A stretch of 64,000 bases of DNA from Candidatus Zhuqueibacterota bacterium (GCA_016783505.1 JADHWK010000001.1:1-64000), one strand, 5' to 3'; shown: positions 1 through 44,773, counted from the stretch's first letter. Made by a program: numbers and translations. The notes: generated by a model from the letters alone, not told the origin.

Positions 1-23
1 TCGTTTAAAGTTAACGAAACCCG

Positions 24-123
24 CCCCGTTAGATATTGAAAATTCAAACTGTTGTTAAAAAGTATCTATTAGATATTTGCTTACATAGGTCTACTAAAAT
101 TATAAGGATTTATCTAAGGGGGG
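24..123. mobile_element. ~100-bp MITE-like element with CCCCGTTAGATA-type terminal inverted repeats
   Basis: ccccgttagata (24-35) vs tatctaaggggg(g) (111-123), one mismatch; ccg on both flanks (21-23, 124-126); AT-rich interior. Confidence 0.55.
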
Positions 124-153
124 CCGTATCGAAGCCCGGCATTAGGCTTTCGT

Positions 154-567
154 ATCAGTCGGGCGCCTGACCGAGCCCGGTTTAGCCGAATACCGAAGGC
201 CGTCATCCCAAGATGCGTCCGCACCGAAAACCGATACGGGCCCCGTGGAGTAAGTTTTACTACTCAACGGGGCGGGCAGCGTTACCGATAACCCAGCTAC
301 ATGACCGTATAAAGAAATAGATCCAAAAAGAAGAACAAAAAAATCATCCTACTTCTTAGTTGCCTTTTCTTGTTAATTTTCAATTCCCAATTTCATCCCG
401 GATCCCGGTTCACGAATCACGGATCACGCATACAACAATCAGCAATCCGGGCAGACGCCCGCCCGTCTGGGCGCAATCGTTTCCCCGGGCGACTGGAATA
501 GAATCGAGTTCTCCCCCTCCAGCACCAACTCCCGCATGTCCTGGTGCAAAATAGAATACGCTAATTT
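154..567 (+). pseudogene. Repeat unit 1: upstream region and 5' fragments of the 3653-4525 gene, start codon lost
   Basis: 154-327 aligns with 3533-3652; AAG at 328 replaces ATG; the KNKKIILLLSCLFLLIFNSQFHPGS and PGDWNRIEFSPSSTNSRMSWCKIEYAN blocks are present but out of frame. Confidence 0.85.
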
Positions 568-658
568 AAAGGGTGTCATTTCCCAGCGCACAGAATTCGA
601 CCACCGATCATATTATCCAAAATATGAGACCATCACCAATCAAAACGGAGTCTTTTAA

Positions 659-700
659 CTTGAAAATATTCCCTATAATGATTATATTGTTATTTTCAAG
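659..700 (+). promoter_or_regulatory. Sigma70-like promoter bracketed by a 10-bp inverted repeat (possible HicB operator)
   Basis: TTGAAA (660-665), 17 bp, TATATT (683-688); cttgaaaata (659-668) and tattttcaag (691-700) are a perfect inverted pair. Confidence 0.55.
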
Positions 701-745
701 AAGGGCATAAAAATGATAAAAGCAATTTTTTGATAAGGAGCAAAT

Positions 746-1036
746 ATGATTAAAAACATTATCTTTAGGGTGGAAATATTTAAGGAAGATGACCAGTACG
801 TTGCGATCTGTCCCGAATTGAACGTATCAAGTTATGGTGATTCAATCGAAGAGGCGAGAAAGGCAATTTCCGAAGCCATTAATCTCTTTTTAGAGGAATG
901 CGAAGAGATGGGAACTTTGAAAGAAGTATTAGAAGAAGCAGGATTTACCCATCTTTTGGTACCTGAAGAAAAATGGATAACTAACGAGCCTGTCTCATTT
1001 GAGAAAATTAATCTTCTCGAGGCCCTCAGTGTCTGA
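746..1036 (+). CDS. hicB: HicB-family antitoxin
   Basis: IFKEDDQYVAICPELNVSSYGDSIEEARKAISEAI is the HicB N-domain motif; AAGGAG RBS. Confidence 0.85.
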   Translation: MIKNIIFRVEIFKEDDQYVAICPELNVSSYGDSIEEARKAISEAINLFLEECEEMGTLKEVLEEAGFTHLLVPEEKWITNEPVSFEKINLLEALSV

Positions 1037-1271
1037 AGGTAAGTTAGTCCCTATACATTATAAAAAACTGACAAAAATATTTGAAAAGGATGGCTTTGTG
1101 GTAAGACGTCGCAAAGGCGATCATATAAGCATGGTGAAACCAGGTATTAAAAGACCTTTGGTCATAAAAACGAGTCCCAAAAAAGTGCCAGTTACTCACA
1201 TCAGAACTAATATGACTACGGCAGGCATGAGTAGGGAACGATTTCTTAAATTGCTTGATGAAGTAAAATAA
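1029..1271 (+). CDS. hicA: HicA-family toxin
   Basis: IFEKDGFVVRRRKGDH motif; basic, ~80 aa; GTG at 1029 overlaps the hicB end. Confidence 0.8.
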   Translation: MSEGKLVPIHYKKLTKIFEKDGFVVRRRKGDHISMVKPGIKRPLVIKTSPKKVPVTHIRTNMTTAGMSRERFLKLLDEVK

Positions 1272-1305
1272 AAATCCCGATAAAATCTAATTAAACAGCC
1301 CCAAA

Positions 1306-1677
1306 ATGAAAAACACAAAAATCATCCTACTTTTTAGTTGCCTTTTCTTATTAATTTTCAATTCCCAATTTCACCCCGGATCACGGATCCAGCATCCAAC
1401 TATCAGCTATCATTCCCAAGCATTCGGGACAATCAACAATCCGGGCAGACGCCCGCCCGTCTGGGCGCAATCAGCAATCGGCAATCAGCAATCCGCATTC
1501 TGCATTCCGAAATCCGGGCAGACGCCCGCCCGTCTGGGCGCAATCGTTACCCCCGGCGATTGGAATAGAATCGAGTTCTCCCCCACCAGCACCAACTCTC
1601 GCATGTCCTGGTGCAAAATAGAATACGCTAACTTTGGGGTAAATATAAATGTCTCAATTTCTTCATTTAACATATAA
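1306..1677 (+). pseudogene. Repeat unit 2: truncated copy of the 3653 gene 5' region
   Basis: Same N-terminal block and PGDWNRIEF...IEYANFGV block, separated by a 7-mer repeat tract; homology stops after FGV. Confidence 0.85.
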
Positions 1678-1711
1678 GAGCAATTGAAAGGAAATTTCTG
1701 AGGGCATTTAG

Positions 1712-1969
1712 ATGGAACAGACAAAATACATTGACAAAGATGAATTCGTAGAGAGGGGGAAAAGAATATATAAAAGGTTAAAACCAAAGTTAGAAAGGGA
1801 TTTTAAAGGGAAAGTAATTGCTATTGAAATTGAGTCTGGTGATTATGTTGTTGGAGAAGACGAACTGGATGCGGCGATAAAGGCGAAAAAGAAATTCCCT
1901 GGGAAGATATTTGATTTCATACGGATTGGATATGAGGTAGTTCATAAACTTCGAAAGGGTAAAGAGTGA
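1712..1969 (+). CDS. Small protein, DUF5678-like partner of a clan AA aspartic protease
   Basis: KGKVIAIEIESGDY...AKKKFPGK...RIG pattern; coupled (GTGA overlap) to the protease gene. Confidence 0.6.
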   Translation: MEQTKYIDKDEFVERGKRIYKRLKPKLERDFKGKVIAIEIESGDYVVGEDELDAAIKAKKKFPGKIFDFIRIGYEVVHKLRKGKE

Positions 1970-2331
1970 TCAAAGGCTTCGTCAATGAGCATGAAGAACC
2001 TATTATTGAATTAACCTTGATTTTAAGAAACGAACCTAGGAATTTCCCCGCGGTTATTGATACCGGATTTAATGGGTATATTAGTGTGCCCGAAAAACAC
2101 GTAAAAAGTTCAGATTGGCTCTTTATGGGTTATGAAGAATATGAGCTGGCTTCAGGAGAGATAGTGAAGGCAAAAACTTATTTAGGAAACATTGTATTTG
2201 ATGAAAAACAAATGCCAACCTTCATTTTATCCTCAACATCCAAGGATATTTTAATTGGCACCCGATTATTGGGGACTAAAACGTTGTTCATAAATTTTAT
2301 TGATAAGAAAGTTGTTATTAATGATAAATAA
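1966..2331 (+). CDS. Clan AA (retropepsin-like) aspartic protease
   Basis: AVIDTGFNG catalytic motif, ELASG flap, ILIGTRLL C-terminal motif. Confidence 0.85.
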   Translation: MIKGFVNEHEEPIIELTLILRNEPRNFPAVIDTGFNGYISVPEKHVKSSDWLFMGYEEYELASGEIVKAKTYLGNIVFDEKQMPTFILSSTSKDILIGTRLLGTKTLFINFIDKKVVINDK

Positions 2332-2397
2332 ATACGCCCTTTTCTTATCTCCCATCATAGGTGAATTTTTATCTTTCATCTTTTATCTTATTTTTCA

Positions 2398-2897
2398 GTC
2401 ACCGATAACCTAGTTCCGATTAACGTATAAATAAACCAAAAATGAAGAACAAAAAAATCATCTTACTTCTTAGTTGCCTTTTCTTATTAATTTTCAATTC
2501 CCAATTTCATCCCGGATCACGGATCATGGATTCAGCTGTCAGCAATCAGTCCCGAGCATTCGGGACTATCAGCCGTCAGCCGTCAGCTTTCAGCCATCTT
2601 TCAAACTTACCACTTAGCAATCAACAATTAACAATCAACAATCAGCAATCAACAATCAGCAATTCATCTCTAACCCCTCCACACTCCGATGCGGCTAACT
2701 CCCCTTCACCTGGTGATTGGAATAAAATTGAGTTCTCCCCCTCCAGCACCAACTCCCGCATGTCCTGGTGCAAAATAGAATACGCTAACTTCGGGGTTTA
2801 CCCTGTTAAATATAAATATTTCAATTTCTTCAATGTTCTATTTGTCAGTTTAAAGGGGTCCCCAATTTTAATATGGGGTTCGGAAATGATTATTTAA
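2398..2897 (+). pseudogene. Repeat unit 3: truncated copy of the 3653 gene 5' region (ORF 2442-2897)
   Basis: Upstream gtcaccgataacc resembles 3606-3640; both conserved blocks present with the longest 7-mer tract; ends in a MITE-like element. Confidence 0.85.
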
Positions 2898-2907
2898 CGG
2901 GGTGAAC
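2796..2907. mobile_element. ~100-bp MITE-like element
   Basis: gtttaccctgttaaata (2796-2812) vs tatttaacggggtgaac (2891-2907), 15/17 inverted match. Confidence 0.55.
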
Positions 2908-2953
2908 TGTAGGGAGTAAATCAACCGAATCATTAATTTCTCAGGAGGATGTC

Positions 2954-3301
2954 ATGAAACCTATTAAATCAATGAAATGTTATGTTTTTAAAGATGTATC
3001 ACCTTTACACATTCTCTTTACTGAAGAGGATGGTGTAATTGTCGTGAGATGTTTAGACTTCAGCATTTCCAGCCACGGTAACACTATCCAAGAAGCCATA
3101 GAATCTATGAATATTGCTTTGATAGATTATATCAGGCATGGTATAGAAAATGGCGATATTGACGCTCTTTTTGACCCTGACCTGAAGGAATATTGGGATT
3201 TATATATGGAGTTAGAGATCGAAGAGGAAAGGAAAAGTTTTAGGGAGCACCTCAAGGAGGTTGAGAAGAATGTTCAGAGTGAAGGATTAATCTATGCTTA
3301 A
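2954..3301 (+). CDS. HicB-like antitoxin
   Basis: EEDGVIVVRCLDFSISSHGNTIQEAIESM resembles the HicB N-domain; AGGAGG RBS. Confidence 0.65.
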   Translation: MKPIKSMKCYVFKDVSPLHILFTEEDGVIVVRCLDFSISSHGNTIQEAIESMNIALIDYIRHGIENGDIDALFDPDLKEYWDLYMELEIEEERKSFREHLKEVEKNVQSEGLIYA

Positions 3302-3509
3302 GCCCAAGGAATTGCGGAAGGTCATCAAAATTCTATCAAACTATGGAATTAAATTCAAATATTCCAAGAGGGGAAAGCATTCGGGTAAGTTTTATAAAGG
3401 GGCGAAATCCTTTCCTGTGAAAGCACATGGTAAAAAGACCGAAATTCTCCCCTATGCGTTAAAGGGATTAATCAAGAAATACGGCTTACCAGAGGATGTT
3501 TTTTATTAA
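3294..3509 (+). CDS. HicA-like toxin
   Basis: 71 aa, basic, K-LRKVIKIL..YG....RGKH....FPVKAHG pattern; overlaps the antitoxin. Confidence 0.6.
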   Translation: MLKPKELRKVIKILSNYGIKFKYSKRGKHSGKFYKGAKSFPVKAHGKKTEILPYALKGLIKKYGLPEDVFY

Positions 3510-3652
3510 CTTTTATAAGGAACAAAGGAAATATCAGTCGGGCGCCTGACCGAGCCAGGTTTAGCCGAATACCGAAGGCCGTCAACGAAAACCGATACGG
3601 GCTGCGTTACCGATAACCCAGCTACATGACCGTATAAAGAAATAGCCCCAAA

Positions 3653-4525
3653 ATGAAAAACAAAAAAATCCTATTACTTTTTAGTTGCTTTTTCCTATTA
3701 TTTCTCAATTCCCAATTTCATCCCGGATCACGGATCATGGATTCAGCTATCAGCAATCAGCAATTAACAATCCTCTCCCCGGGTATCTGGAATAGAATCG
3801 AGTTCTCCCCCACCAGCACCAACTCCCGCATGTCCTGGTGCAAAATAGAATACGCCAACTTTGGTGTCTATTCTGATGGGGCTTCGCCGGAACTTAACCA
3901 CCTTATCGTTAGAAATTGTTCCGACACCGGCATTTGCTTTTCCTCTGTCCCCTCAATCCTTGATCCTTTATCTTTTATTATTGCCGAAGGCAACAGAGTG
4001 GGGTTTCAGTTTGAAGGAGTGGACTCCGGATTAGTGGGAAGGAATGTGGTGGTTGGTAATGATGAAGTGGGGATTGGGTGTAAGACGAATCCGCTGAGAA
4101 TTTCAAATAACCTGCTTAATCGTAATAATACAGGCGTTTTGTGTGAATACGGTTCGCATTCCACTATTGAGCACAATGGAATTCTAAATAATAGCTATGA
4201 AATAATAACACGATGTAGTTCTAATGCGATGGTTAACTTGAACAATTTAGCTAGTAATTTAATTAGGCAGATTCGTATTGAACATAACTCTTTTCCTACG
4301 ATAAATTCTAATAACTTTAGTAATAACCCAGATATTTGTATAAGCTTACTTTGGACCTGGAATGTTAACGCAAAAAACAATTGGTGGGAAACTACAGTTG
4401 AAAATGAAATAGATGAAATGATCTGGGATGGAAATGATGTGAATGATCCGGAACATCCTTTGGGATTTGTGGAATATATTCCTTTTGAGATTTCTATAAT
4501 TGATAGCTCAGGCATTCAGAATTAA
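3653..4525 (+). CDS. Right-handed parallel beta-helix (NosD/PbH1-like) exported protein
   Basis: Signal-like N-terminus; repeated I.NN.I..N..GI units; C-terminal NAKNNWW...IWDGND motif. Confidence 0.75.
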   Translation: MKNKKILLLFSCFFLLFLNSQFHPGSRIMDSAISNQQLTILSPGIWNRIEFSPTSTNSRMSWCKIEYANFGVYSDGASPELNHLIVRNCSDTGICFSSVPSILDPLSFIIAEGNRVGFQFEGVDSGLVGRNVVVGNDEVGIGCKTNPLRISNNLLNRNNTGVLCEYGSHSTIEHNGILNNSYEIITRCSSNAMVNLNNLASNLIRQIRIEHNSFPTINSNNFSNNPDICISLLWTWNVNAKNNWWETTVENEIDEMIWDGNDVNDPEHPLGFVEYIPFEISIIDSSGIQN

Positions 4526-4535
4526 TAATTAAAAA

Positions 4536-5495
4536 ATGGCAAAATTTCTTGTAACCGGCGGCGCTGGCTTCATCGGTTCCAACATTTTTGAAGAGCTTTT
4601 GAAAAGAGGAGAAAAGGTAAGAGTTCTTGATAACTTCTCCACAGGCAAACGAGAAAACATCAGCGATATCTTAAGGGTTTTGTCTAATGACTCAATAACT
4701 CAATTACCTAATAATTTAGAAATAATTGAAGGAGATATAAGAAGTTATCATATTGTCAGAGAAGCAGTTGAAGGGGTGGATTTTATTTTACACCAAGCGG
4801 CTTTGCCTTCTGTGCCTCGTTCTATAAAGGATCCAATAACGACTAATGAGGTTAATGTAAAAGGAACTTTAAATATTTTGTATGCGGCTAAGGATGCTGG
4901 TGTTAAAAGAGTAATTTATGCTTCTTCATCTTCTATTTATGGAGACAGCGAAGTTTTACCAAAGAAAGAAGATATGACACCAAATCCGCTTTCGCCTTAT
5001 GCGGTCTCTAAATTGGCAGGTGAGAAATATTGTCAGGTGTTTTATCAGATTTATGGATTGGAAACGATTTGTTTGAGATATTTCAATGTTTTCGGACCAA
5101 GACAAGACCCGACTTCGCAATATTCAGCAGTGATTCCGAAGTTCATTACAATGATGAAAAAGGGTGAAAGACCCATAATTTATGGGGATGGAAAGCAGAG
5201 CAGGGATTTTACCTATGTGGCGAACGTGGTGGAGGCGAATATTTTAGCTTGCACCGGAAATAATATGACTGGAGAGGTTCTTAATATCGCTTGCAGTGAA
5301 CGATTCACGCTTTTGGATCTGGTTAGGCAATTGAATCACATACTTGGCAAAAATTTTGAGCCTGTGTTTGAACCACCTCGCCCAGGGGATGTGAAGCACT
5401 CAATGGCTGATATTTCGAAAGCTATAAAGGGAATAAACTATTTTGTTAAAACTGATTTTGCTACTGGGATAAAAATTACTACTGAATTTTTGTAA
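4536..5495 (+). CDS. NAD-dependent epimerase (WbpP/WbgU-like extended SDR)
   Basis: TGGAGFIG, HQAALPSVPRS, YAVSK, RYFNVFGPRQDP. Confidence 0.9.
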   Translation: MAKFLVTGGAGFIGSNIFEELLKRGEKVRVLDNFSTGKRENISDILRVLSNDSITQLPNNLEIIEGDIRSYHIVREAVEGVDFILHQAALPSVPRSIKDPITTNEVNVKGTLNILYAAKDAGVKRVIYASSSSIYGDSEVLPKKEDMTPNPLSPYAVSKLAGEKYCQVFYQIYGLETICLRYFNVFGPRQDPTSQYSAVIPKFITMMKKGERPIIYGDGKQSRDFTYVANVVEANILACTGNNMTGEVLNIACSERFTLLDLVRQLNHILGKNFEPVFEPPRPGDVKHSMADISKAIKGINYFVKTDFATGIKITTEFL

Positions 5496-34241: not shown

Positions 34242-35672
34242 TTGCTAAAACAACACCGCACACTATTTAGCGCCTTATTCATCGCCTTCGACTTCCTGAT
34301 ACTCAACTTAGCTTTTCTGTTGGCCTACCAGATCCGGTTCCTCGGCAGGAGCATCATAGTAGATCAAATCTACTTTCAGTTACTGCTTGTTTCCAACCTG
34401 ACCTGGTTAATAGGAATTTCCGCATTCAGTTTATACGGTGAGAGAAGAACGGAAAGGCTTTTTGCCGAAATCTATCCGGTTCTAAAAACTATTTTCGTCG
34501 TATTTGTTTTAATATTTTCCTTTATCACCCTTTACAAAGCCCATTACTACTCCCGCCTGTTTTTGGGTTACTTTTTAATTTTAATCACTGTTTTACTTAT
34601 TCTGAGCCGCGTCACTACCTGGGCGGTGTTTCGCTGGCTGCGGAAAAGGGGCCGCAACACCCGGAATTTGCTCATCGTTGGCGCCGGAAGGGCCGGGGAA
34701 AAATTACTGGATCTTATTGAGGATAACCCGGGCTATGGCTATCGGATGGCCTATTATTTAGATGATAGGCCCGGTGAGGGGCTGCTGGCCCGCTTGAAGA
34801 AGTTAAAAGATCTCAAAGTAGGAAAAGTTAAAGAACTGGAAGGAATTCTTGCCAACAATCCTATGTCCAAAATGGGGGACATTGAGGAGGTGTTGATTGC
34901 CCTGCCCTTATCGAATGGTAAAGTGATTAATAGCCTGATAAGCACCTGTGATTATTACGGCATAAAGCCTAAAGTCATCCCCGATTTCTTCTGGTCCCTC
35001 CCCCAGAAAATTTCCCTTGACAGCTTTGCCGATGTGCCAGTAATTTCGTTACGGGAATTTCCATTAGATTATGCCCACAACAGGCTTTTGAAAAGATGTT
35101 TTGATATTTTGGTTTCGTCCCTGATACTCTTATTTTATCCCATAATTTATGCAATAATCGGAACCGCCATAAAACTGTCATCCAGGGGGCCGGTATACTT
35201 TAAACAGGAGCGCACTGGGTTGAATAATAGGAATTTCGACTTTTATAAATTCCGTTCCATGCAGCAGCATTCACCTGAGATAGCCAACACCCTTCAGGCC
35301 ACCAAAGATGATCCCCGCATTACGGCGGTGGGACGCTTCTTAAGGAAAACCAATCTGGATGAGATTCCCCAGATCATCAATGTGTTCAAAGGAAACATGA
35401 GCTTAGTCGGTCCCCGCCCCCATATGCTGAAGCATACCGACCAATACCAGAAACTGGTGCCCAAATATATGGTTCGCCACCTTATAAAACCCGGCATGAC
35501 AGGGTGGGCCCAGGTGAACGGCTATCGGGGGGAAACTAAGCGGGTGGAATTGATGAAAAGAAGGGTGGAATATGACCTTTATTACATTGAGAACTGGTCG
35601 TTCTGGTTTGATATAAAGATTTTATTCCTTACCCTATGGGTGGTGCTCAAAGGGCAGGAGATGGCGTATTAA
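34242..35672 (+). CDS. wcaJ: WcaJ-like undecaprenyl-phosphate hexose-1-phosphate transferase
   Basis: N-terminal TM helices, [44 protein letters not shown]. Confidence 0.9.
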   Translation: MLKQHRTLFSALFIAFDFLILNLAFLLAYQIRFLGRSIIVDQIYFQLLLVSNLTWLIGISAFSLYGERRTERLFAEIYPVLKTIFVVFVLIFSFITLYKAHYYSRLFLGYFLILITVLLILSRVTTWAVFRWLRKRGRNTRNLLIVGAGRAGEKLLDLIEDNPGYGYRMAYYLDDRPGEGLLARLKKLKDLKVGKVKELEGILANNPMSKMGDIEEVLIALPLSNGKVINSLISTCDYYGIKPKVIPDFFWSLPQKISLDSFADVPVISLREFPLDYAHNRLLKRCFDILVSSLILLFYPIIYAIIGTAIKLSSRGPVYFKQERTGLNNRNFDFYKFRSMQQHSPEIANTLQATKDDPRITAVGRFLRKTNLDEIPQIINVFKGNMSLVGPRPHMLKHTDQYQKLVPKYMVRHLIKPGMTGWAQVNGYRGETKRVELMKRRVEYDLYYIENWSFWFDIKILFLTLWVVLKGQEMAY

Positions 35673-35884
35673 TCAGAAATTAGAAACTTGAAGTCAGAAA
35701 CTAGAAAAAGAAACTAGAAACCTGAAATCAGAAATATGAAACTAGTTGTAGCGCAGCGGAAACCCGTAAGGGAAACAAGAAACTAGAGGGGTATTGAAAT
35801 TCAGGGAGAACGGAAAAGAAATGGATAAATGGATAAACGGCTGAAAGGCAAAATTGCTAAATGGCTAAACTGTTGAATGGCTAA
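35671..35884 (+). repeat. Degenerate 7-mer tract (GAAACTA/GAAATCA) followed by an 8-mer tract (ATGGATAA/ATGGCTAA)
   Basis: Visible periodicity; related tracts at 36787-36833, 37182-37312, 37767-37830, 40529-40555, 41430-41552, 44386-44455, 45726-45860, 54866-54906. Confidence 0.85.
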
Positions 35885-35978
35885 AAATACAATTTAACGA
35901 CGTAGTAATTCAAATAATATATCCAAAAGTAATTGAGACCATAAAATTTCGTTTTTTAGTTATAAAGTGAGGTAACCC

Positions 35979-36257
35979 ATGATGACAGAAATTATTGAAT
36001 TGAAAAAAAAGGGAATATATCTTCGCAGAAAATTTCTTGAACAATTAGGTTTGAAAACTGGTGACCGAGTGATTATTGAGGTGAAGCCTAAAAGCGTAGA
36101 GGTTGTTCCTTTAACCCATAATCAAGCAACCCTTAAGCTTCTTGAACGGCTTTCACTACCTGCTGGAGCGCTAAAGAATAAAGCTGAGAATCCAGATGCG
36201 AGAATAGATTTACAAGATGAGATCGGCGGAGATATCTATGATGAGAGTATTGATTGA
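35979..36257 (+). CDS. AbrB/MazE-type antitoxin
   Basis: KGIYLRRKFLEQLGLKTGDRVIIEV swapped-hairpin motif. Confidence 0.75.
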   Translation: MMTEIIELKKKGIYLRRKFLEQLGLKTGDRVIIEVKPKSVEVVPLTHNQATLKLLERLSLPAGALKNKAENPDARIDLQDEIGGDIYDESID

Positions 36258-36720
36258 TACTCGCCTTTGGGGGTTGGCTTTGAAGGTCCCCTATTATGAT
36301 GACAAAGATCCAGTTAAGGAATATGCTCTGCAGGCTGATCACTTTATTAGGGAACGCTTAGAGCAGGATCTGATTTGCGTTACGACACAATTGCTGGCTG
36401 AAATTCATCATGTCTTGACGACCAGGGGTAGGAAACTACCATCATCTGATGCAGAGGTGGTGGTTAAAGAAATTCTGGATAGCGAGCGTTCTATTTTTCG
36501 TAATCCTAATAAGGATACAATCTTACAGGCTCTACGGCTTAGCACCAAATGTGATATCCATATCTGGGACTTTCTACTTGTATTGCCATTTAAAGGCGAA
36601 TTGGACAGAATTTATACTATGGATCCTCATTTTAGAGAATGTAAGCATTTGCAAGTTGCCCCTGTCGAAAATCCACTGGGGGTATGGAGGTTAGAAGGCG
36701 CATTATTAGGTAAAAATTAA
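36241..36720 (+). CDS. PIN-domain (VapC-like) toxin
   Basis: MRVLIDT, LAEI, IWDFL, YTMDPHF. Confidence 0.85.
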   Translation: MRVLIDTRLWGLALKVPYYDDKDPVKEYALQADHFIRERLEQDLICVTTQLLAEIHHVLTTRGRKLPSSDAEVVVKEILDSERSIFRNPNKDTILQALRLSTKCDIHIWDFLLVLPFKGELDRIYTMDPHFRECKHLQVAPVENPLGVWRLEGALLGKN

Positions 36721-36746
36721 TTCTTCTATGATTTTACTGTAAGGGG

Positions 36747-36820
36747 CCGGTTTACTTTAAGCAGGAGCGCAGCGGAAACCCGTAAGGGAAATCAGAAATC
36801 TGAAACTAGAAGTGTGAAAT
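36747..36820 (+). repeat. 74-bp direct repeat (second copy 37727-37800), beginning with a wcaJ GPVYFKQER fragment
   Basis: One mismatch between copies; 36743-36771 matches wcaJ 35186-35214 with two synonymous changes. Confidence 0.9.
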
Positions 36821-37186
36821 ATGAAGTATGAAAAAGAAGAAAAACCGGAAGATCTAAAAGTCAGAACTAAGAAGTATGCCTTACGGGTGATTAAACTGGT
36901 AAATACCCTTCCCAAAAACATGGTAGCCCATGAAATCGGAAGACAGTTGTTGAAGGCGGGGACATCGGTAGGTGCGAATACGCGATCAGCATATCGTGGG
37001 AGGTCAAGAAAAGAATTTATTTCCAAAATAGGGGTTGTTATTGAAGAATGTGATGAATCGCTTTTCTGGATGGAAATTTTAGTTGAATCTGGAATTATGA
37101 AAGAAAATATTTTAAAACCTTTAATGAATGAGGCTGACGAATTGATTTCCATATTTGTATCTATTTCAAAGAAAAACAAGCAATAG
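36821..37186 (+). CDS. Four-helix-bundle protein (23S rRNA IVP/TIGR02436-like)
   Basis: DLKVRTKKYALRVI, RQLLKAGTSVGAN, EFISKIGVVIEECDESLFWMEIL. Confidence 0.9.
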   Translation: MKYEKEEKPEDLKVRTKKYALRVIKLVNTLPKNMVAHEIGRQLLKAGTSVGANTRSAYRGRSRKEFISKIGVVIEECDESLFWMEILVESGIMKENILKPLMNEADELISIFVSISKKNKQ

Positions 37187-37332
37187 AAAACTAGAAAGCC
37201 GAAACTTGAAGTATGAAAAAAATATGAAAAACAATTATTTCCAACTTCCACCTTTTCCAAAGGGATCCCGAGACTTCGGGACAAGTTTCTAGTTTCAATG
37301 TTTTTAGTTTTAAAATAGAGGGGGTTTTACCA

Positions 37333-37602
37333 ATGGCAATCAAAGTGGATTTATCGGAATTTAAGGTGTTAGATTCACCGAACGATATTGAAGTTCCTGA
37401 TTGGATGAGCAGGATAAGAAGCGAAGATATGCCAGAGTTTATTGCGGATATTGTGAAGGCTTATTTATATGGATTGAGAACCGGGGATTTTTCAAAGGCT
37501 AAAGAAGAACTGGAAACCTGGCGAGAGACCGTTGAGCTATGTTATGATCTTCCTGAAAAGGAGGAGGTGTCGGTTCGGTGGAGGGACCTTAAGGATGTAT
37601 GA
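37333..37602 (+). CDS. Putative antitoxin
   Basis: 89 aa, acidic, ending VRWRDLKDV; overlaps a RelE-like remnant. Confidence 0.5.
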   Translation: MAIKVDLSEFKVLDSPNDIEVPDWMSRIRSEDMPEFIADIVKAYLYGLRTGDFSKAKEELETWRETVELCYDLPEKEEVSVRWRDLKDV

Positions 37603-37720
37603 GAAGGGCAAGTACAGGATAAAAACCCCTTTCGGTTATCGCATTGTCTACGAAATAGCCGAGAAGGAATCATTGGTTAGGATTTATAAGATTGATACAC
37701 GGGTAAGTATTGGTTATTAA
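37595..37720 (+). pseudogene. RelE/ParE-like toxin, internally deleted
   Basis: MYE joined to KYRIK..GYRIVYEI.....V.IYKI (RelE C-terminal half); only 41 codons. Confidence 0.6.
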
Positions 37721-37971
37721 AATGGTCCGGTTTACTTTAAGCAGGAGCGCAACGGAAACCCGTAAGGGAAATCAGAAATCTGAAACTAGAAGTGTGAAAT
37801 CAGAAATATTAAACTAGAAAGCAGAAGTTAGTGAAGATGAGCTATGCCGGTTTTTTACTAATCCTAACTTGGATCTGTATGGACCGGCTTTCATTTTTTT
37901 CTTGTGAAAGGGGATTTTTTGTTGTATATTTTAAAAAATCACTAACCACTTTGTAATCCAGAAGCATTATT

Positions 37972-38289
37972 GTGAAAAAAGAGATAGATTTTATATACTA
38001 CTTCGATTTAGACAATCGACTTAGAGTAAGTGCATTGAAGGAAAAGAAGGAAATACAGGAATTTATTGTTCAATATGAAGCCTTTATTCAAAAGAAATGG
38101 CGGTCCATTGTTCGATACGACACAAGTCACGGTTTTATTCATAAGGACACTATGCATCCAGATCAAAAACAGGACAAATTCCCTATATTTTTTATGACCT
38201 ATGAAGTGGCATTTACCTATGCCATAGCCGATATCAAGAGGTTTTGGCAAATATATCGGGATAATTATGAAAAGGAGATAAGGAAATGA
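37972..38289 (+). CDS. Small TA-like toxin candidate (RYD..HG..H motif)
   Basis: IVRYDTSHGFIHKD; ATGA overlap with the next gene; TTGTGA-17-TATATT promoter at 37902-37930. Confidence 0.55.
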   Translation: MKKEIDFIYYFDLDNRLRVSALKEKKEIQEFIVQYEAFIQKKWRSIVRYDTSHGFIHKDTMHPDQKQDKFPIFFMTYEVAFTYAIADIKRFWQIYRDNYEKEIRK

Positions 38290-38537
38290 AGCAAGAAGAA
38301 TTAGCGGAAAAGAACTTGGATCTCTTCCATGAATTCATGATGTATGTCTTAGAGAAGCCCGATATCCTTGACCGAATACCCAAGGGTGCTCAGCTTGTTA
38401 TTCTTCCTGAGGATGATCCGGAACTTTGTCAGAAAAATCTGGAAATTGTACGTAAGAGAAAGGAAGAAGGTCAAACGGTGGTAACCGTGAAGATGCTCAC
38501 CCCTAAACGAGTAGTGCCCAAAATAGCAGTGTCTTAG
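38286..38537 (+). CDS. DUF5647-like small protein, putative antitoxin
   Basis: KNLDLFHEF..YVLE.PDIL..IPKGAQLVILPEDDPELC pattern (family recalled, not searched). Confidence 0.55.
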   Translation: MKQEELAEKNLDLFHEFMMYVLEKPDILDRIPKGAQLVILPEDDPELCQKNLEIVRKRKEEGQTVVTVKMLTPKRVVPKIAVS

Positions 38538-38579
38538 TTTGAACTAATTTGTATAAATGACTACTGTCCTGATAATTCC

Positions 38580-38918
38580 AATGATCCCCGAATAACAAAA
38601 TTTGGAAAATTTATCCGTAAATATAGTCTCGATGAATTGCCGCAATTATTCAATGTTCTAAAGGGTAATATGAGTCTTGTGGGCCCAAGGCCATGCTTGC
38701 CTTATGAATGGGATGCTTATGACAGATGGCATAAAAGGAGGCTTGATGTGAGACCTGGATGTACGGGGCTCTGGCAGGTAAGCAGCAGAAGCGAAGTTGG
38801 ATTTGATGATTCTGTCATTCTCGATTTATACTATATTCAAAACATGTCACCCTGGTTTGATCTTCAATTAATTCTAAAAACCATACCAACGATGATTACC
38901 GGATATGGTGGAAAATGA
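38580..38918 (+). pseudogene. 3' fragment of a second, paralogous sugar transferase
   Basis: [38 protein letters not shown] through to a stop; no N-terminus. Confidence 0.85.
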
Positions 38919-39480
38919 GCAACGAACAAGACGAACTGAACTAACATTTTTACTAAAAGCTGAGTAAAGCACATTGTTTTACAAGCAAAGTATGTGTGGA
39001 GCAAACAGCAATCAATTAGGTTCCCTCCCCCTTGCCCCCCACCTATCCTCCCCCCATAATGGTGGGAGAACAAAGAAGGGGGGATTAATATGGGGGAGGG
39101 TTTCGGTCAGGTCAGTCAGGCGGGTATTTTGCAGAACTATCGCAATTGATAATTTAGGGGTTTTATGTTTGGAACCGCTCTAAAGAGCGATTCTGGTTAA
39201 CTAATTGCTAAACAAAATATTAACTAGAACCTTATCCCGATGCTTCGGGATAGGTTCTGGACATTAGCAACGTTTACTAGTTGTGCCACAGACCCAGGCG
39301 CATGACTGATCGGTCAGGCGCCCGACTGAAGGGAGGGGAATGGAAAGGATAGATACTAATGACATTCCGCCGTTGCCAACGAATGGCGATATCCGCTCAT
39401 ATTTTTTATGAAGTTGACCAAAAGGCAACCGTAGCGGTGAATGAAATATAGGTATTTATTAAGATAAGGAAGGGTTTGAG

Positions 39481-39723
39481 ATGGCATGCCGTAAAAAAGT
39501 GTTGAGCGTTCCCCCCTCTTTTTTGGAGATAGAACAATTAGCCAGATACTACGCAAAAGGGAAAGGGATTTCATTTTCAGCCTTTGTCTGGCAAGCAGTT
39601 GAGCATTATATACGGGAACAATTAGGTGAAGAAGAACTTCCTGCTGATGTTATCTGTGAACTTGATATTATGGAAAAAGAAATGGATCAGGGTGGGTATC
39701 TTCTGCTTCAGAACTTAAAATGA
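39481..39723 (+). CDS. RHH-like antitoxin
   Basis: LSVPPSFL....YAKGKGISFSAFVWQAVEHY; ATGA overlap with RelE. Confidence 0.65.
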   Translation: MACRKKVLSVPPSFLEIEQLARYYAKGKGISFSAFVWQAVEHYIREQLGEEELPADVICELDIMEKEMDQGGYLLLQNLK

Positions 39724-39977
39724 CCTGGGAGGTCAGGATATCCCGAGAAGTTGTTCGATACCTTTCCCGCATGGAAGAGAAGCGGAGCCAGATACTCCGA
39801 GAAATATTAAAAGGCTTTCGTGAAAATCCCTTTGTGGGAGATGTAAAACCGATAAAAGTACGTCCCAGCATGTATCGCAGGCGAGTGGGTGCATGTAGAA
39901 TCATCTAATCGATTGACTATGAAGCTCATATTGTTAAAGTACTGAGGATAGGAACAAGAGGGGATATCTACAAGTAG
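39720..39977 (+). pseudogene. relE: RelE-family toxin with nonsense mutation
   Basis: MTWEVRIS...YRRRVGACRII*SID...VKVLRIGTRGDIYK*; in-frame TAA at 39906-39908. Confidence 0.85.
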
Positions 39978-40088
39978 TGAAGACCAGAGTTCACTGACCT
40001 TATTATAGAATGGGCTTCGGCATAGAAAGAGTACCTAATTTTATAGATTAATAGCTAACAATCATTATCTTTTTAGTTTATTTTTGTT

Positions 40089-40182
40089 AGGGTTTGTTCG
40101 TTCAGCGGTCAAATAGAAGATTTTGTAAAAAGAGTGACAGCAGTTCTGAAGAGTGAATCTCAAAATTGAAGTCAAAATCGAT
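40089..40182 (+). pseudogene. 3'-end fragment of the 45048-45494 toxin-like gene
   Basis: Aligns with 45414-45507 (FSGQIEDFVKRV.AVL.SESQN* and downstream bases). Confidence 0.85.
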
Positions 40183-40214
40183 TATGGTCCATATTTCTGA
40201 AAATCCTTATCTAA

Positions 40215-40530
40215 CAGGCCACTAAAGATGATCCCCGCATTACGGCGGTGGGCCGCTTCTTAAGGAAAACCAACTTGCCCCGATAATTCACAACCTAATA
40301 ATCACAGTTACCAATCATTTACATTAACTATGACATAGCTACCAAAATATTACCAATTAACGCATTAATTATCGGGGTTGGACGAGATTCCTCAGATCAT
40401 CAATGTATTCAAAGGAAACATGAGTTTAGTCGGTCCCCGTCCCCATATGCTGAAGCATACCGATCAATATCAGAAGCTAGTGCCCAAATACATGGTCCGC
40501 CATTTAGTAAAACCCGGCATGACCGGGTGA
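40215..40530 (+). pseudogene. wcaJ fragment A (QATKDDPR...PGMTG), interrupted by a MITE
   Basis: Aligns with 35295-35504 over 70 codons. Confidence 0.92.
40278..40377. mobile_element. 100-bp MITE, copy A
   Basis: Perfect 11-bp TIR ccccgataatt/aattatcgggg; ttg duplicated on both sides; intact wcaJ shows the empty site. Confidence 0.9.
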
Positions 40531-40590
40531 AAATTAAAAACTAGAAAGCAGAAAGAAGACTTTTTGATCTGGGGACAAAGAGAATAAAAG

Positions 40591-40848
40591 GTGAAAAGTA
40601 TTGACTATACACGCCATGCCAGAAATAAGTTTGATATCCTGAAACGGCATGGCTTTGAGGTGACTCCAGATCAGGTTGAGGAAACTGTATTGAACCCTGA
40701 AAAGGTGATCCCACAGCCAGGCGGCAGATTCATCGCCCAGAAAGGGATCACCGAGCGGCACGTGCTACGGGCTGTGTACCGGGAGGAAGAAGAGACACGT
40801 AAGGTGATCACTTTTTACCCAGGAAGGAGAGAGCGTTATGAAACTTAA
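40591..40848 (+). CDS. DUF4258-like toxin candidate
   Basis: YTRHARNK, VLNPE, HVLRAVY, VITFYP. Confidence 0.75.
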   Translation: MKSIDYTRHARNKFDILKRHGFEVTPDQVEETVLNPEKVIPQPGGRFIAQKGITERHVLRAVYREEEETRKVITFYPGRRERYET

Positions 40849-41059
40849 CTATGATCGAGAAGAAGACATCTTGATGATTGAAACAACCCCTGAAGGCACC
40901 ATTGATCACGCTGAGCACACGGGGCCGTTCATAGCGCATTTCAGTCGGGATGGGCAACTCTTGTTATTGGAAATTCTCGATGCCAGTGAATTTCTGTCCT
41001 CGCTGATTAAGGCCACCCTTCGCGGGCAGGAACAAGAACTACCATTTACTGTTGGATAG
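40838..41059 (+). CDS. DUF2283-like antitoxin candidate
   Basis: MKLNYDREEDILMI...DGQLLLLEILDAS. Confidence 0.8.
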   Translation: MKLNYDREEDILMIETTPEGTIDHAEHTGPFIAHFSRDGQLLLLEILDASEFLSSLIKATLRGQEQELPFTVG

Positions 41060-41064
41060 AAAAC

Positions 41065-41430
41065 GCAGACTGAAGCAGCAACGGCTGGACCAAAACGAGG
41101 CCATTGGGGCCAGTCTTCAAAATAAAGGACGATCCACGAGTTACGCAGGTAGGCTATTTTTTAAGGAAAACCAACTTGCCCCGATAATTCACAACCTAAT
41201 AATCACAGTTACCAATCATTTACATTAACTATGACATAGCTACCAAAATATTACCAATTAACGCATTAATTATCGGGGTTGGATGAGATTCCCCAGATCA
41301 TCAATGTATTCAAAGGAAACATGAGCTTAGTCGGTCCCCGGCCCCATATGCTTATGCATACCGATCAATATCAGAAGCTGGTGCCCAAATACATGGTACG
41401 TCATTTGGTAAAACCCGGCATGACAGGCTG
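41065..41430 (+). pseudogene. Chimeric sugar-transferase fragment B, interrupted by a MITE
   Basis: Left part GPVFKIKDDPRVTQVG (non-wcaJ paralog type); right part wcaJ-like through PGMTGW. Confidence 0.85.
41179..41278. mobile_element. 100-bp MITE, copy B (identical to copy A, same site)
   Basis: Base-by-base identical to 40278-40377; ttg duplicated on both sides. Confidence 0.9.
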
Positions 41431-41620
41431 GAAGGTAGAAATTAAAAACTTGAAATCAGAAACTGGAAGTATGAAAAGAATTCGAAAGGAAAATCACTGT
41501 TATCTTAGATTTTCTCCCGAGACTTCGGGACAAGTTTCAAGTTTCTAATTTTAAAGTGGGTGGTGGTCAAGGGGCAGGCCTGCTCGCCCCTTTTCAAAAA
41601 GGTAATGTCTTTGCACAATT

Positions 41621-41645
41621 GGAGGCGAGCCTGCTCGCCTTTTTT
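41621..41645 (+). terminator. Rho-independent terminator-like hairpin, with a partial tandem copy at 41571-41605
   Basis: aggcgag-cctg-ctcgcct followed by a T-run; gcctgctcgcc..tttcaaaaaggta occurs twice. Confidence 0.45.
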
Positions 41646-41802
41646 CAAAAAGGTAGGGTTACTGTTGACGAGGTGTTAGAAGAGATCAGGAAACAGGCTC
41701 AGGAAAAGATCAATGGCTGAACGGCCTTTGGGGCAATGGTCTGAAAGTTACATCTTTTAAAAAACAAAAAATTAACTTGATTAGTATTGTTCATTTTGTT
41801 CG

Positions 41803-41975
41803 TTGCAAAAGAAAGGAGTCAAAACGAACATTGCTGTTGTTGGAATTGGATATTGGGGACCAAATTTGGTTAGAAATTGTGTGGAGAATCTTGACATCAA
41901 GGATGTTTATGCCGTAGATATTGATCCATCCCGGTTAGAATTTATCAAGTCAAAGTATAATTCCGTTATTATCGT
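41803..41975 (+). pseudogene. N-terminal fragment of a Gfo/Idh/MocA oxidoreductase
   Basis: IAVVGIGYWGPNLVRN...VDID; truncated at a palindromic element near 41995. Confidence 0.8.
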
Positions 41976-42097
41976 TGAGCCCGGTAATATTGAGATTAAC
42001 CCACAGTTTTAACGGTGGGATTAAGCTGTAAGAAATCAATTTTCAACCCCTTTAGGGGTTTTTAAAGAAGGTTCAGCGTTATAATGCGGAGATATTT

Positions 42098-42232
42098 ATG
42101 AATGTTCCATTTCTTGATTTAAAAGCCCAGTTACTAAAGATCAGATCAGAAATACAAAAACGATTTTCAGAAATCATAGATAATACATCCTTTGTCTGTG
42201 GAAAAGGAGTGGCAGAGTTTGAAGATAATTTT
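42098..42232 (+). pseudogene. 135-bp duplicate of the 5' end of the degT-like gene at 43222
   Basis: Near-identical to 43222-43356. Confidence 0.92.
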
Positions 42233-42331
42233 AAAGCGATCCGATACCGTTAGTTAAGCGCCCGACTGATTTTGACCTTTTTGCAATAAACCCATTTATC
42301 CTCCGAAATTTTTCAGCAGGATAAATATTAA

Positions 42332-42634
42332 ATGAAACATCTTCCTATTTTCTTAAGTAAGTATTTCTGGGAGGTAGATTTTGCATCCCTTGATGCAGAA
42401 AAATACCCTAAATATGTCATCGAAAGGATATTAGAGTATGGGGATATTAAGGCAATTCGGTGGATGAAGAAAAATTTCAGTCTTGATGAGATTAAAAATG
42501 TCCTGTATAACACAAGGGGACTGACTTTAAGAAGTGCCACCTTTTGGGCAATAGTTTTGGGAATACCAAAAAAGAGTATCAAATGTTTGAGCAAGCCCTA
42601 TCTGGAAATACGAAAACTGTTCTGGCCTTATTAG
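42332..42634 (+). CDS. DUF6922-like antitoxin partner
   Basis: YFWEVD...LD......YVIERILEYGD motif. Confidence 0.75.
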   Translation: MKHLPIFLSKYFWEVDFASLDAEKYPKYVIERILEYGDIKAIRWMKKNFSLDEIKNVLYNTRGLTLRSATFWAIVLGIPKKSIKCLSKPYLEIRKLFWPY

Positions 42635-43221
42635 GAGACTCAGATGTTTTAGCTTATTCCTATCTTGCCGGTGGAACAGGAATAGCTCTTCAACTTGGTC
42701 ATAGAATATCAATAGACCTTGACTTCTTCACTCCTGAGGAGTTTGATATTGATGCTCTTGTTAAAAGACTTAATGAAATAAACCAGTTTACACTTGAGGA
42801 AAAAAAATGGGGAACCGTAACGGGTGAGTTTGGCGAAGTGAAGTTTAGCATTTTTGTCTACCAGTATCCAGTAATTTTGCCCTTCAAATCATTTCTCAAA
42901 GTAAATATTATGGATGTTCGTGAAATTGCGGCGATGAAACTAGAAGCAATTGCAACGAGGGGAAAGAAGCGGGATTTCATTGACCTTTATTTTGTCGTGC
43001 AGGGAATTGAAGGACTTAAAGGCATTCTTTCGCTGTATAATAAGAAATACGGAAAATTTGGGAACAAAATGGTTCATATTATGAAAGGCCTTACCTATTT
43101 TGAAGATGCCGAGGCGGAGGAGTTACCAAGAATGTTAGTCCCGGTGGATTGGAAAGAGGTAAAGAGATTCTTTGAAGAAGAGGTCAGAAAAATAGGAAGG
43201 GAGTTCTTGGAAGGAGGTTAA
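42583..43221 (+). CDS. AbiEii/AbiGii-like nucleotidyltransferase toxin
   Basis: YLAGGTGIALQLGHRISIDLDFF, AAMKL.AI..RG.KRDFIDLY. Confidence 0.88.
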   Translation: MFEQALSGNTKTVLALLGDSDVLAYSYLAGGTGIALQLGHRISIDLDFFTPEEFDIDALVKRLNEINQFTLEEKKWGTVTGEFGEVKFSIFVYQYPVILPFKSFLKVNIMDVREIAAMKLEAIATRGKKRDFIDLYFVVQGIEGLKGILSLYNKKYGKFGNKMVHIMKGLTYFEDAEAEELPRMLVPVDWKEVKRFFEEEVRKIGREFLEGG

Positions 43222-44313
43222 ATGCAAGTTCCATTTCTTGATTTAAAAAGCCAGTTACCAAAAATCAGATCAGAAATACAAAATCGGTTTTCAGAAATCA
43301 TAGATAATACATCCTTTGTCTGTGGAAAAGGAGTGGCAGAGTTTGAAGATAATTTTTCTAAACTTCACGGAGTGAAGTATACAGTCGGTATAAGTTCAGG
43401 CACAGACGGCAATCATTTAGCCATGTTATGTTTAGGAATTGGAGCCAATGACGAAGTCGTTGTTCCTGTCAATACATTTATTGCCACAGCAGAGGGTATA
43501 TCGCATGCAGGGGCCACACCGATTTTTTTAGATGTAAATGAGAAATCATTTAACATAGATGTAAACAAAATTGAACAGTCAATTACCCCAAAAACTAAAG
43601 CCATTAATCCGGTTCATCTATTTGGTAAACCGGCTGAAATGCAAACAATTCTTTAAATTGCAGAGAAATATAACCTTAAGGTAATTGAGGACGCTGCCCA
43701 GGCCCATACGGCTTCTTATAATAATAAAAAAGTAGAAAATTTAGGGGATGTGGCCTCATGGCCTTTTTATTCCGGGAAAAATCTCGGTGCCTGGGGTGAA
43801 GCCGGAGCTATTACTACAAATAGCGAAGAGATTAATAAAAAAGCAAAAGATTTACGCGATCATGGCTCTGATAAAAAATATTACCATGATTTAATAGGTC
43901 ATAACTATCGTATGTCTGAATTTCAAGCCGCTGTCCTCAATGTAAAAATGAAATACATTGAAGAATGGACAGAAATGCGAAGATCGAATGCCAAAAAATA
44001 TTATGAGCATTTAAAGGATATAGGACAAGTAATAACCCCAGTTGAAATGGACGGCGTCCGACATATATACCATTTATATGTAATCAGAGCACCAAATCGT
44101 GATAAGCTTCAGGATTTTTTAAAGGAAAATGGAATCGCTACAGGTTTACATTATCCTATACATTTGCACCTTACAGGGGCTTATTCGCGTCTTGGCTACA
44201 AAAAAGGCGACTTCCCTGTTGCAGAAAAGTTAGCAGATGAAATTCTTTCACTCCAAATGTATCCAGAATTGTCCGAAGAACAGACAGATTATGTATGTGA
44301 AAAAATAAAATAA
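43222..44313 (+). pseudogene. DegT-family aminotransferase with internal stop
   Basis: In-frame TAA at 43654-43656; the frame continues IAEKYNLKVIEDAAQAH...GKNLGAWGEAG. Confidence 0.88.
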
Positions 44314-44519
44314 TTTTATTGTAACCTATAATTGCATAGTATTCTAAGAACCATAACTTTTGCCATAAGGGGGATTGGAACGTTTTAATCAGAAACTAGA
44401 AACTTGTCCCGAAGTCTCGGGATGAAATCTGAAACTAGAAAAAAGAAACTAGAGGCGTATTGAAATTCAGGGAGAATAGGAAGAAATAGATCGATGGATA
44501 AGAAAAGAAATGGGTAAAT

Positions 44520-44670
44520 GCCCCCCTGGGAGCGTAGCCTCCTACCCTAGTCGCAAAGCGATCTTGCCTGCCCGTGGCCGGGCTACGGCCAGGGGGACCG
44601 GGCACGGCGGACCGGTCGGCCTGCCCGGCCAGGGAGACCCGCCTAGGGGCAGGTAAGGCCCGTCTGGGGA
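44520..44670. repeat. GC-rich nested palindromic insertion in an 8-mer tract
   Basis: Abrupt GC-rich block with tggcc/ggcca, cctgccc/gggcagg and gcccgtctggg motifs, between ATGGATAA-type repeats. Confidence 0.55.
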
Positions 44671-44773
44671 TAAGTGGATAGATGGACAAGTGGATTTTTT
44701 GTTGTAAATTAACAATAAGAAAATTAAAAGAGGGAACCGAAGGGGGCTTTTTTACCAATAGGAGGATACAATT

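Follow-up and report, generated by a model that had tools for sequence, protein, structure and literature searches.

Chromosomal toxin-antitoxin (TA) pairs are patchy and look mobile, yet most of them come without a mobility gene, which is an old and open question. TA-rich cassette arrays are found in chromosomal integrons such as the Vibrio superintegron, where a stabilising effect on the array is ascribed to the TA pairs. Integrating elements that accrete in tandem are known from SXT, located at the 5' end of prfC, and from the CIME elements of Streptococcus thermophilus. Behind rhs and cdiA, fragments of the conserved part of the gene alternate with orphan toxin-immunity modules of two genes each, which are reshuffled by recombination. 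Insertion with long target duplication of gene complexes of the restriction-modification (RM) type was reportedly described by Nobusato et al. in 2000. Passages of Furuta, Abe & Kobayashi (2010, PMC2853133) use this name, which comes from Kobayashi's group, for RM addiction modules that lack mobility genes and are flanked by direct repeats of 46 to about 420 bp; these repeats stem from a target segment that has been doubled, frequently extend over a gene's 3' end and are mostly found in competent species, and amplification through the repeats and a "virus-like life cycle" are proposed. Tycheposons at tRNA genes, as described in the preprint 10.1101/2020.12.28.424599, accrete in tandem at one attachment site and leave partial copies of the target. 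Here, we analyse the first 64,000 bases of contig C1 (GCA_016783505.1 JADHWK010000001.1:1-64000) from the metagenome bin of an uncultured marine bacterium, Candidatus Zhuqueibacterota (2.51 Mb in 89 contigs, 59.9% complete). This whole stretch is called the window, and its start is the end of the contig. The genome keeps footprints of TA movement, stacked several deep at a secreted beta-helix gene (gene A), and a natural recombinant is available for comparison.

Near the left end of the window, the beginning of gene A (about 350-415 nt) is present in four same-strand copies with three different small gene pairs between them, as judged by repeat search and alignment. [quoted passage not shown] Among the probable cases of TA insertion with duplication of a host gene end, which are seen genome-wide, this array is the most elaborate; this recurrence of the layout at other genes, absent from the initial annotation of the window, changes what the array is.

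In the product of gene A, which is 290 amino acids (aa) long, a right-handed beta-helix (Pfam matches to Beta_helix, E-value 3.4e-9, and NosD, E-value 1.6e-5) is combined with a signal peptide and a low-complexity linker. The outer (5') part of the gene is kept in every stub (units 1 to 3), and the intact copy (unit 4) adjoins the gene body (Table 1). Four 5' copies in tandem order with three distinct pairs between them had been proposed in the initial annotation, and repeat search, alignment and bridging contigs bear this out. All units share a conserved block of 85-95 nt (…WNRIEFSPTSTNSRMSWCKIEYAN…), in which 76-78 of 84-85 nt are identical in every pair of units, corresponding to about 8% divergence; a 29-mer from this block occurs exactly four times in the window and in none of 100 shuffled versions. 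Unit 1 has AAG where the other units have ATG and is frameshifted, the conserved block being out of frame with the start-proximal part (open reading frames (ORFs) 370-501 and 536-658; alignment), as was noticed in the initial annotation. The polarity proposed there, which makes the unit most distant from the intact gene the oldest, agrees with the decayed state of unit 1, but the conserved block is equally diverged in all pairs of units and does not reveal an order of age.

No two cassettes of the window are alike. In cassette 1, the HicA gene product scores 36.6 bits, above the Pfam cut-off of 27, and the HicB-like product (HicB_lk_antitox) scores 20.8 bits, below its cut-off of 27; with a HicA toxin domain and an adjacent HicB-like antitoxin, it is a predicted type II TA pair of the HicAB kind. 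The protease-like gene of cassette 2 matches TIGR03698 with an E-value of 8.4e-15 and has IDTGF in its translation, in agreement with the aspartic protease of the initial annotation, yet its 55 bits fall under the cut-off of 57.35. The 85-aa ORF preceding it had been labelled DUF5678-like; this label finds no support, as there is no Pfam match at E-values up to 5. Cassette 3 had been described as a HicB/HicA-like pair, of which the HicA-like half can be retained at 21.9 bits (below the cut-off of 27), but its 115-aa partner shows only a hint of DUF7387 (E-value 0.095). A Pfam scan revealed no recombinase or transposase in the window cassettes.

In the coordinates of unit 4, homology to unit 1 is lost at about 3859, to unit 2 at about 3866 and to unit 3 at about 3876, which places these ends within some 15 nt. 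On the left, the units begin at scattered distances from the ATG, namely 13, 44 and at least 121 nt 5' of it. Right ends that are nearly shared and left ends that are scattered are expected of a duplicated segment (-x..J) around an insert, which is one reason for reading the array as insertion with long target duplication. The same 26 nt follow units 2 and 3, and 31 of 31 nt are identical after unit 2 and after a gene A stub on contig C38. This common stretch shows one inherited junction rather than independent breaks, and the junctions of unit 2, unit 3 and the C38 stub descend from one event. Among the window stubs, only the junction of unit 1, where part of a second gene (gene B) is fused to the stub, is a separate event. 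The shared stub breakpoints of the initial annotation are thus present in the window as a spread of about 15 nt, but they are not three independent hits, and they are not shared throughout the stub family: the stubs on C38 and on a further contig, C43, break at scattered points, one of them after about codon 8 and others at WCK, RNCS and DEVGI.

The unit 3 junction is located within the 6-nt overlap (GTTTAC) of the codons for FGVY and the left arm of a palindromic element, and unit 2 and the C38 stub contain a shortened form of this junction. A 43-nt run without any difference between unit 1, unit 4 and the recombinant contig L043 (described below) ends at the junction and includes a 29-nt core that is exact in all four units; in the 15 nt after the conserved run, five positions differ between intact copies. 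This location, at the edge of an identity run and followed by a locally diverged stretch, is a second reason for the reading of target duplication. At the unit 1 fusion point (IEYAN/LKGVISQRTEF), genes A and B are alike over about 23 nt, and the proteins P0002 and P0003 of relatives contain the same kind of gene A/gene B fusion. The gene B fragment is followed by a remnant of six codons (MIKAIF) of an antitoxin-like gene and then by hicBA; the gene being whole in P0002, a later cassette has probably overwritten an earlier one.

Recombination between units is documented by L043, a metagenome contig. It consists of window positions 1-517 followed by 3812-4291, both at 100% identity, and is a recombinant of units 1 and 4 in which all three cassettes are missing. 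The crossover falls inside the shared block, within a 25-nt identical run located 50-75 nt before the junction, and is therefore homologous, not site-specific: homologous recombination between units happens. With its one hybrid gene A 5' copy, L043 is a same-strain recombinant and does not show the ancestral empty site; it represents one molecule type and not a distribution of crossovers. It may be a chimeric contig, against which it can be said that a 25-nt overlap would be shorter than the usual assembly word sizes.

Comparison of the genome with itself yielded 131 direct-repeat pairs, 400-4000 nt apart, and Pfam scans were performed around most of the pairs not internal to large genes (29 stretches on 26 contigs). 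Many of the 131 pairs were rejected as insertions, being internal repeats of large genes, Por_Secre_tail domains or dispersed repeats. The layout of the gene A array was encountered again at the unrelated genes listed in Table 1, with repeats of 67-400 nt and, in every case examined, an insert that runs in the direction of the host gene. In the case of ffh, the 116-nt repeat is followed by one tail in the intact gene and by another in the fragment. The two ETF fragments start within about 8 nt of each other, without a common junction sequence. The DegT gene of the window, whose 5' stub precedes an AbiEii gene, is itself split (43222-43653 and 43750-44310).

An unbiased set of toxin genes was collected by three family searches (11 PIN, 3 HicA and 6 ParE, 20 genes), and a gene was counted as bracketed when direct repeats of at least 50 nt and at least 75% identity were present within 2 kb on each side; random 350-nt spots served as control. 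Eight of the 20 toxin genes are bracketed, compared with 10 of 300 random spots (Fisher p 1.6e-6), and four of 16 when the gene A arrays are left out (p 0.003). A wider list, with 17 of 33 genes bracketed, is biased, since the repeat screen supplied five of its genes and the arrays analysed here supplied others. Pfam identified no recombinase or transposase in or beside the gene A arrays and the other scanned TA loci. The sole integrase-related match near a repeat pair is an N-terminal integrase fragment on contig C44, where the pair holds no TA gene; the eight PF00589 matches of the assembly are on other contigs or, on C36, 38 kb away, and none is beside a TA locus. The recurrence of the layout at unrelated genes, the bracketing of toxin genes and the lack of recombinase genes beside the TA loci together form the third reason for the target-duplication reading.

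Table 1. Positions of the gene A array, its junction elements and comparable loci (window coordinates unless a contig is named)
Feature	Position	Strand	Description	Basis
Unit 1	153-565	+	dead 5' stub of gene A with long upstream region	alignment, repeat search
Unit 2	~1288-1639	+	5' stub, open frame (ORF 1306-1677); upstream homology only ~13 nt	
Unit 3	2398-2803	+	5' stub, open frame (ORF 2442-2897); upstream homology 44 nt	
Unit 4	3532-4525	+	intact gene A (3653-4525) plus 121 nt upstream region common to unit 1	
Cassette 1	746-1271	+	HicB-like gene 746-1036, HicA toxin gene 999-1271	Pfam
Cassette 2	1712-2331	+	85-aa ORF 1712-1969, clan AA aspartic protease-like gene 1966-2331	family searches
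Cassette 3	2954-3509	+	115-aa ORF 2954-3301, HicA-like gene 3294-3509	Pfam
Gene B fragment	566-702	+	internal piece of CarboxypepD_reg-like lipoprotein gene; 82-83% identical to C38 and C43 copies	
Antitoxin-like gene remnant	714-737	+	probable remnant, six codons and then stops; whole in relative P0002 (…GIKMLKAIRAIYDNG…)	by-eye comparison
Palindromic-element remnant	1640-1670	+	31 nt at unit 2 junction, identical to one behind C38 stub	
Palindromic element	2797-2909	.	~105 nt (…TTTACCCTGTTAAATA … TATTTAACGGGGTGAA…); left arm overlaps unit 3	
Palindromic element copies	2797-2909; C38 (three); C81:14618-14720; C84:64747-64845			
ffh	C36:54882-57380		followed by 82-aa ORF, PIN gene and ffh 3' fragment; 116-nt repeat, 98%	
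ETF	C23:80-3319		two ParE-type pairs, ETF 3' fragment after each	
NfeD	C72:40796-42923		3' end duplicated around co-oriented small insert	
UDG	C24:26684-28862		3' end duplicated around insert with PIN gene	
TPR gene	C26:21647-23205		3' end duplicated around insert with PIN gene	
cNMP-binding gene	C5:3352-5822		3' end duplicated around co-oriented small insert	
MNT/HepT pair	C16:340-1325		bracketed by repeat	
AsnB	C19:9812-13185		3' end duplicated; insert is a methyltransferase	
DegT 5' stub	42098-42232		135 nt, 94% identical to gene start at 43222; then AbiEii, then DegT	

From this anatomy we infer a recombination route, its donors and an addiction ratchet. In each event, a TA pair of about 0.7 kb would be placed before the gene body and bring along a second copy of the gene's first 350-400 bp, so that the gene stays whole and the earlier 5' copy is left upstream as a stub. 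Donor DNA consisting of the gene end and a TA pair would pair with the chromosome in the conserved block of 85-95 nt, and its far end would be joined illegitimately at the downstream edge of this block, either by a single crossover of the circularised donor or by one-sided, homology-facilitated illegitimate recombination. After the first junction, cassettes could be added, swapped and lost by homologous recombination between the repeated 5' copies; TA addiction would oppose cassette loss, and the array would tend to grow. Of the marks of target duplication used by Furuta et al. (2010), three are present: direct repeats of more than 30 bp enclose the inserts (in the window they measure 350-415 nt), the TA loci have inserts of less than 20 kb with no mobility gene in or beside them, and the coding part of the gene A 5' region is not a dispersed repeat family. 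For the fourth, a repeat that aligns to one copy at the empty site of a related genome, a search of 40 genomes gave no close relative.

Several points weigh against this reading. Because no locus has an empty-site relative, insertion is deduced from the anatomy alone, and the toxicity and addictive action of all these TA pairs are putative. Among the toxin counts, only that of the 20 genes is unbiased. At gene A, ETF and Bac_transf (the last described below), independent breaks are only about 8-25 nt apart, and a fixed attachment site would explain such near-coincident breaks more simply than the edge of an identity block. The co-orientation of every examined cassette is not predicted by a homology-driven route and would need selection for compatible transcription. 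Cassettes can also be lost, at least as DNA molecules, as L043 demonstrates. Of the competence genes, ComEC was not found and DprA gave a weak match only, which is uninformative in a genome of this completeness.

The near-coincident breakpoints and the replaced gene tails are better explained if the cassettes are relics, or integrase-less satellites, of site-specific integrating elements that target a gene end and bring a replacement copy, in the manner of islands at tRNA genes, older ones being pushed outward and only the TA pair, whose loss would not be tolerated, surviving decay. The layout is indeed that of attL and attR with a displaced fragment and the intact copy beside the gene body, the different ffh tails look as if an element had supplied a new gene end, and cassettes 2 and 3 and a C38 cassette share one end of 26-31 nt. 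Stacking with partial target copies is described in the tycheposon passage (10.1101/2020.12.28.424599), and a recombinase acting in trans could be missing from the assembled part of this incomplete genome. The roughly ten target genes would, on the other hand, call for about ten site specificities, and none of the PF00589 matches is placed accordingly; the cassettes of the gene A arrays and of the other scanned TA loci contain no integrase remnant and are uniformly small (0.7-1.5 kb), the L043 crossover is off the junction, and a search of viral contigs for the gene A 5' block gave 65 pattern matches, none of which was confirmed. We consider this origin unlikely, if still the strongest of the alternatives. 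A somewhat weaker case can be made for there being no insertion mechanism at all: an old tandem duplication of the 5' region with an upstream TA pair would have been amplified by unequal crossing-over, with the TA pairs exchanged later between strains by double crossovers in the flanking repeats. This agrees with the one inherited junction common to three units, with the homologous recombination proven by L043, with a plain 901-nt tandem duplication in the right-hand array (see below) and with P0002, in which the place of hicBA is taken by another antitoxin-like gene whose first six codons are left in the window. Simple amplification does not, however, give each cassette its own right-hand junction (13, 44 and 121 nt 5' of the ATG), nor cassettes that are all different between units that are all about 8% diverged, and recent single events at unrelated genes, such as ffh with its 98% identical repeat, remain unexplained; the proposal is accordingly rated as doubtful.

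A working integron-like platform, in which the stub or the palindromic element is the site of some recombinase and a promoter in the stub drives the cassettes, is very unlikely. All 12 TA-like modules in the gene A arrays are on the stub strand (binomial p 0.0005), in size the cassettes resemble those of integrons, a scan of positions 1-4700 gave no terminator-like site on the plus strand, and four of the six clearly paired copies of the palindromic element (arms TTYACCCTGTTAAATA / TATTTAACAGGGTGAA) are in gene A arrays. No IntI-like gene is present on C1, C38 or C43, with the genome 59.9% complete, and the repeats are gene fragments of 350-400 nt and not attC hairpins, judged without an attC model. 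In attC, R'' (RYYYAAC) precedes R' (GTTRRRY); the arms of the palindromic element (GTTAAAT at the 5' and ATTTAAC at the 3' side) are in the reverse order. The element was rejected as an attC-like site, its C81 and C84 copies being located in ordinary intergenic DNA, and cassette 1 is without it. Promoter-like sites are no commoner than chance (11 in the scan, compared with a shuffle mean of 12.1). Least probable of all, and hardly to be credited, is an assembly artefact in which single-cassette strain variants of one locus were chained through the shared repeat. The source is a metagenome bin, the array is at a contig end, the gene A family breaks the assembly into C1, C38 and C43, and L043 would be another path through the same repeat. 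Against this, the units are about 8% apart and have unique linkers, so each join is unique. In Logan runs X1 and X2, from two studies, contigs bridge cassette 1 to unit 2, cassette 2 to unit 3, and unit 3 through cassette 3 to the region upstream of unit 4, i.e. four of the six cassette-unit joins, and the X1 depths of the three cassettes are similar (53.5, 48 and 53.8, with 41.3 for the gene body). The C38 array, furthermore, is collinear with L044, an independent contig, at 98% over 3.4 kb. Logan contigs are 31-mer contigs and not reads; none of those listed spans a whole unit, and they can neither show nor exclude a recombinant of the L043 type.

Three further joints were seen in the Logan data. 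Those at 695>2422 and 699>315 are present at full depth in X1 and X2, with sides of only 30-36 nt; they lead from the end of the gene B fragment into the upstream region of unit 3 and back to where unit 1 begins, and may come from paralogous copies. A joint at 1539>2645 in run X5 has a depth of 3.

In the genome search, the coding part of the gene A 5' region was found only in the arrays on C1, C38 (three copies) and C43, and only the far upstream part belongs to dispersed repeats. The start of C43 contains one stub and another of about 8 codons. The genes of TA type between the C38 and C43 stubs are DUF2281/ParE, MNT/HEPN-like, PemK, PIN and RHH by Pfam, and no recombinase or transposase was identified among the ORFs taken as genes on these two contigs. 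C43 and C38 overlap exactly over 122 nt, and at this overlap one copy of the palindromic element interrupts a gene of the 23S_rRNA_IVP type. The initial annotation suspected that the array continues to the left of the window, and L043 confirms it: directly left of the window it has a TumE toxin gene that pairs with an ORF, besides a further gene B copy of which a truncated end is present. One continuous array in the order C43 (reverse complement), C38 (reverse complement) and C1 was considered and set aside, as the left 141 nt of L043 match the C38 end at only 92%. The right part of L043 matches C1 at 100%, and from this difference a further, unassembled gene B copy must be located left of the window.

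The upstream and linker regions of the units contain repeats of their own. A near-palindrome of 22 nt, TATCAGTCGGGCGCCTGACCGA, is present at 153-174, 3532-3553 and 39310-39329 and at more than 40 sites genome-wide, on both strands and on many contigs; it marks precisely where, on the left, units 1 and 4 become homologous. Also dispersed is an intergenic repeat, about 250 nt long and containing nested hairpins, which is located 5' of unrelated genes; its copies are found in the window (about 100-300 and 3532-3625), at C19:27617-27800 and C31:19353-19491, and on C13, C47, C2, C53 and C34. The promoter region of gene A is one copy of this repeat. It has no Rfam match; at gathering thresholds, the sole Rfam match in the whole window is a tRNA (46177-46250), so the upstream repeats of the units correspond to no known RNA. 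Runs of 7-nt repeats, (CAATCAG)n-like, at 1454-1518, 2611-2675 and 3740-3776 form the gene A linker and are open in every frame. A 44-nt unit with the hairpin CAGACGCCCGCCCGTCTG is present once in unit 1 (435-478) and twice in unit 2 (1429-1472 and 1502-1545), in different linker frames. For annotation, it should be kept in mind that short signal-peptide ORFs in front of such genes are stubs, not genes.

Gene A itself has few relatives. In 40 genomes termed relatives there is no close homologue, the best other match being 35% identical and confined to the beta-helix part. A search of 5.8 billion proteins gave three matches only, all from the same lineage, and among species-representative genomes there were 74 pattern matches for a gene A relative, none of them confirmed.

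Gene A is followed by a polysaccharide cluster of 31 kb (4536-35669), which ends on the right with an intact Bac_transf gene (34242-35669). Here, at 34242-45715, a second array is found, in which TA-like pairs alternate with internal or 3' fragments of Bac_transf that start at residues 347, 352 and 355. Its TA-like genes are MazE-like, DUF7718/DUF5647, DUF2283, AbiEii and TumE. In both arrays, the intact copy is on the side of the cluster, with the fragments directed outward. Two of the Bac_transf fragments, at 40224-41462, are the 901-nt tandem duplication mentioned above (90-93% identity). An insert of about 100 nt with inverted ends (CCCCGATAATT … AATTATCGGGG) is present in both of these fragments, at 40278-40371 and 41179-41272, and not in the intact gene, and (AGAAACT)n-like runs of 7-nt repeats follow Bac_transf and its fragments, at 35671-35753 and at seven more sites in 36790-45769. 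In a bolder and rather improbable interpretation, small addiction cassettes would spread within this lineage by a dedicated, homology-guided copy-in route, for which the conserved end of any gene could be a landing pad that is rebuilt at each event, giving integrase-free, integron-like arrays; the mirror arrays would then be the worn edges of a polysaccharide locus that is exchanged as a block, with TA pairs on its ends.

When compared with the orphan modules of rhs and cdiA, the gene A arrays are alike in that gene fragments alternate with pairs of toxin and protector and recombine with each other, but the rhs and cdiA modules are 3'-proximal and in frame with a secreted toxin domain, whereas here the signal-peptide ends of the gene are repeated and the type II TA genes are separate and cytoplasmic. 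Chromosomal integron arrays likewise contain co-oriented small cassettes, many of them TA, with repeats in between; here there is no IntI, attI or attC, and the repeats are fragments of a protein gene. With tandem integrating elements, the arrays have in common that newer units would push older ones outward, that partial target copies are left between units, and that the intact target is at one end, with a replacement gene end presumably supplied. They differ in that no integrase or remnant of one was found, in the roughly ten targets per genome, in units of 0.7-1.5 kb and in the observed recombinant, which is homologous and not at a fixed core. A literature search found no description of insertion with long target duplication for type II TA pairs, the inspected co-mentions being reference lists only. 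To that process, as known for RM modules, the arrays are similar in their long direct repeats, which are a piece of the target, and in the lack of mobility genes. The cargo, by contrast, is of type II TA and arrays of different cassettes arise by iteration at a single gene end, 5' ends of genes are used as well as 3' ends, successive breakpoints nearly coincide, and the insertion is deduced without an empty-site genome. The link of TA pairs to the route of RM modules makes this route testable.

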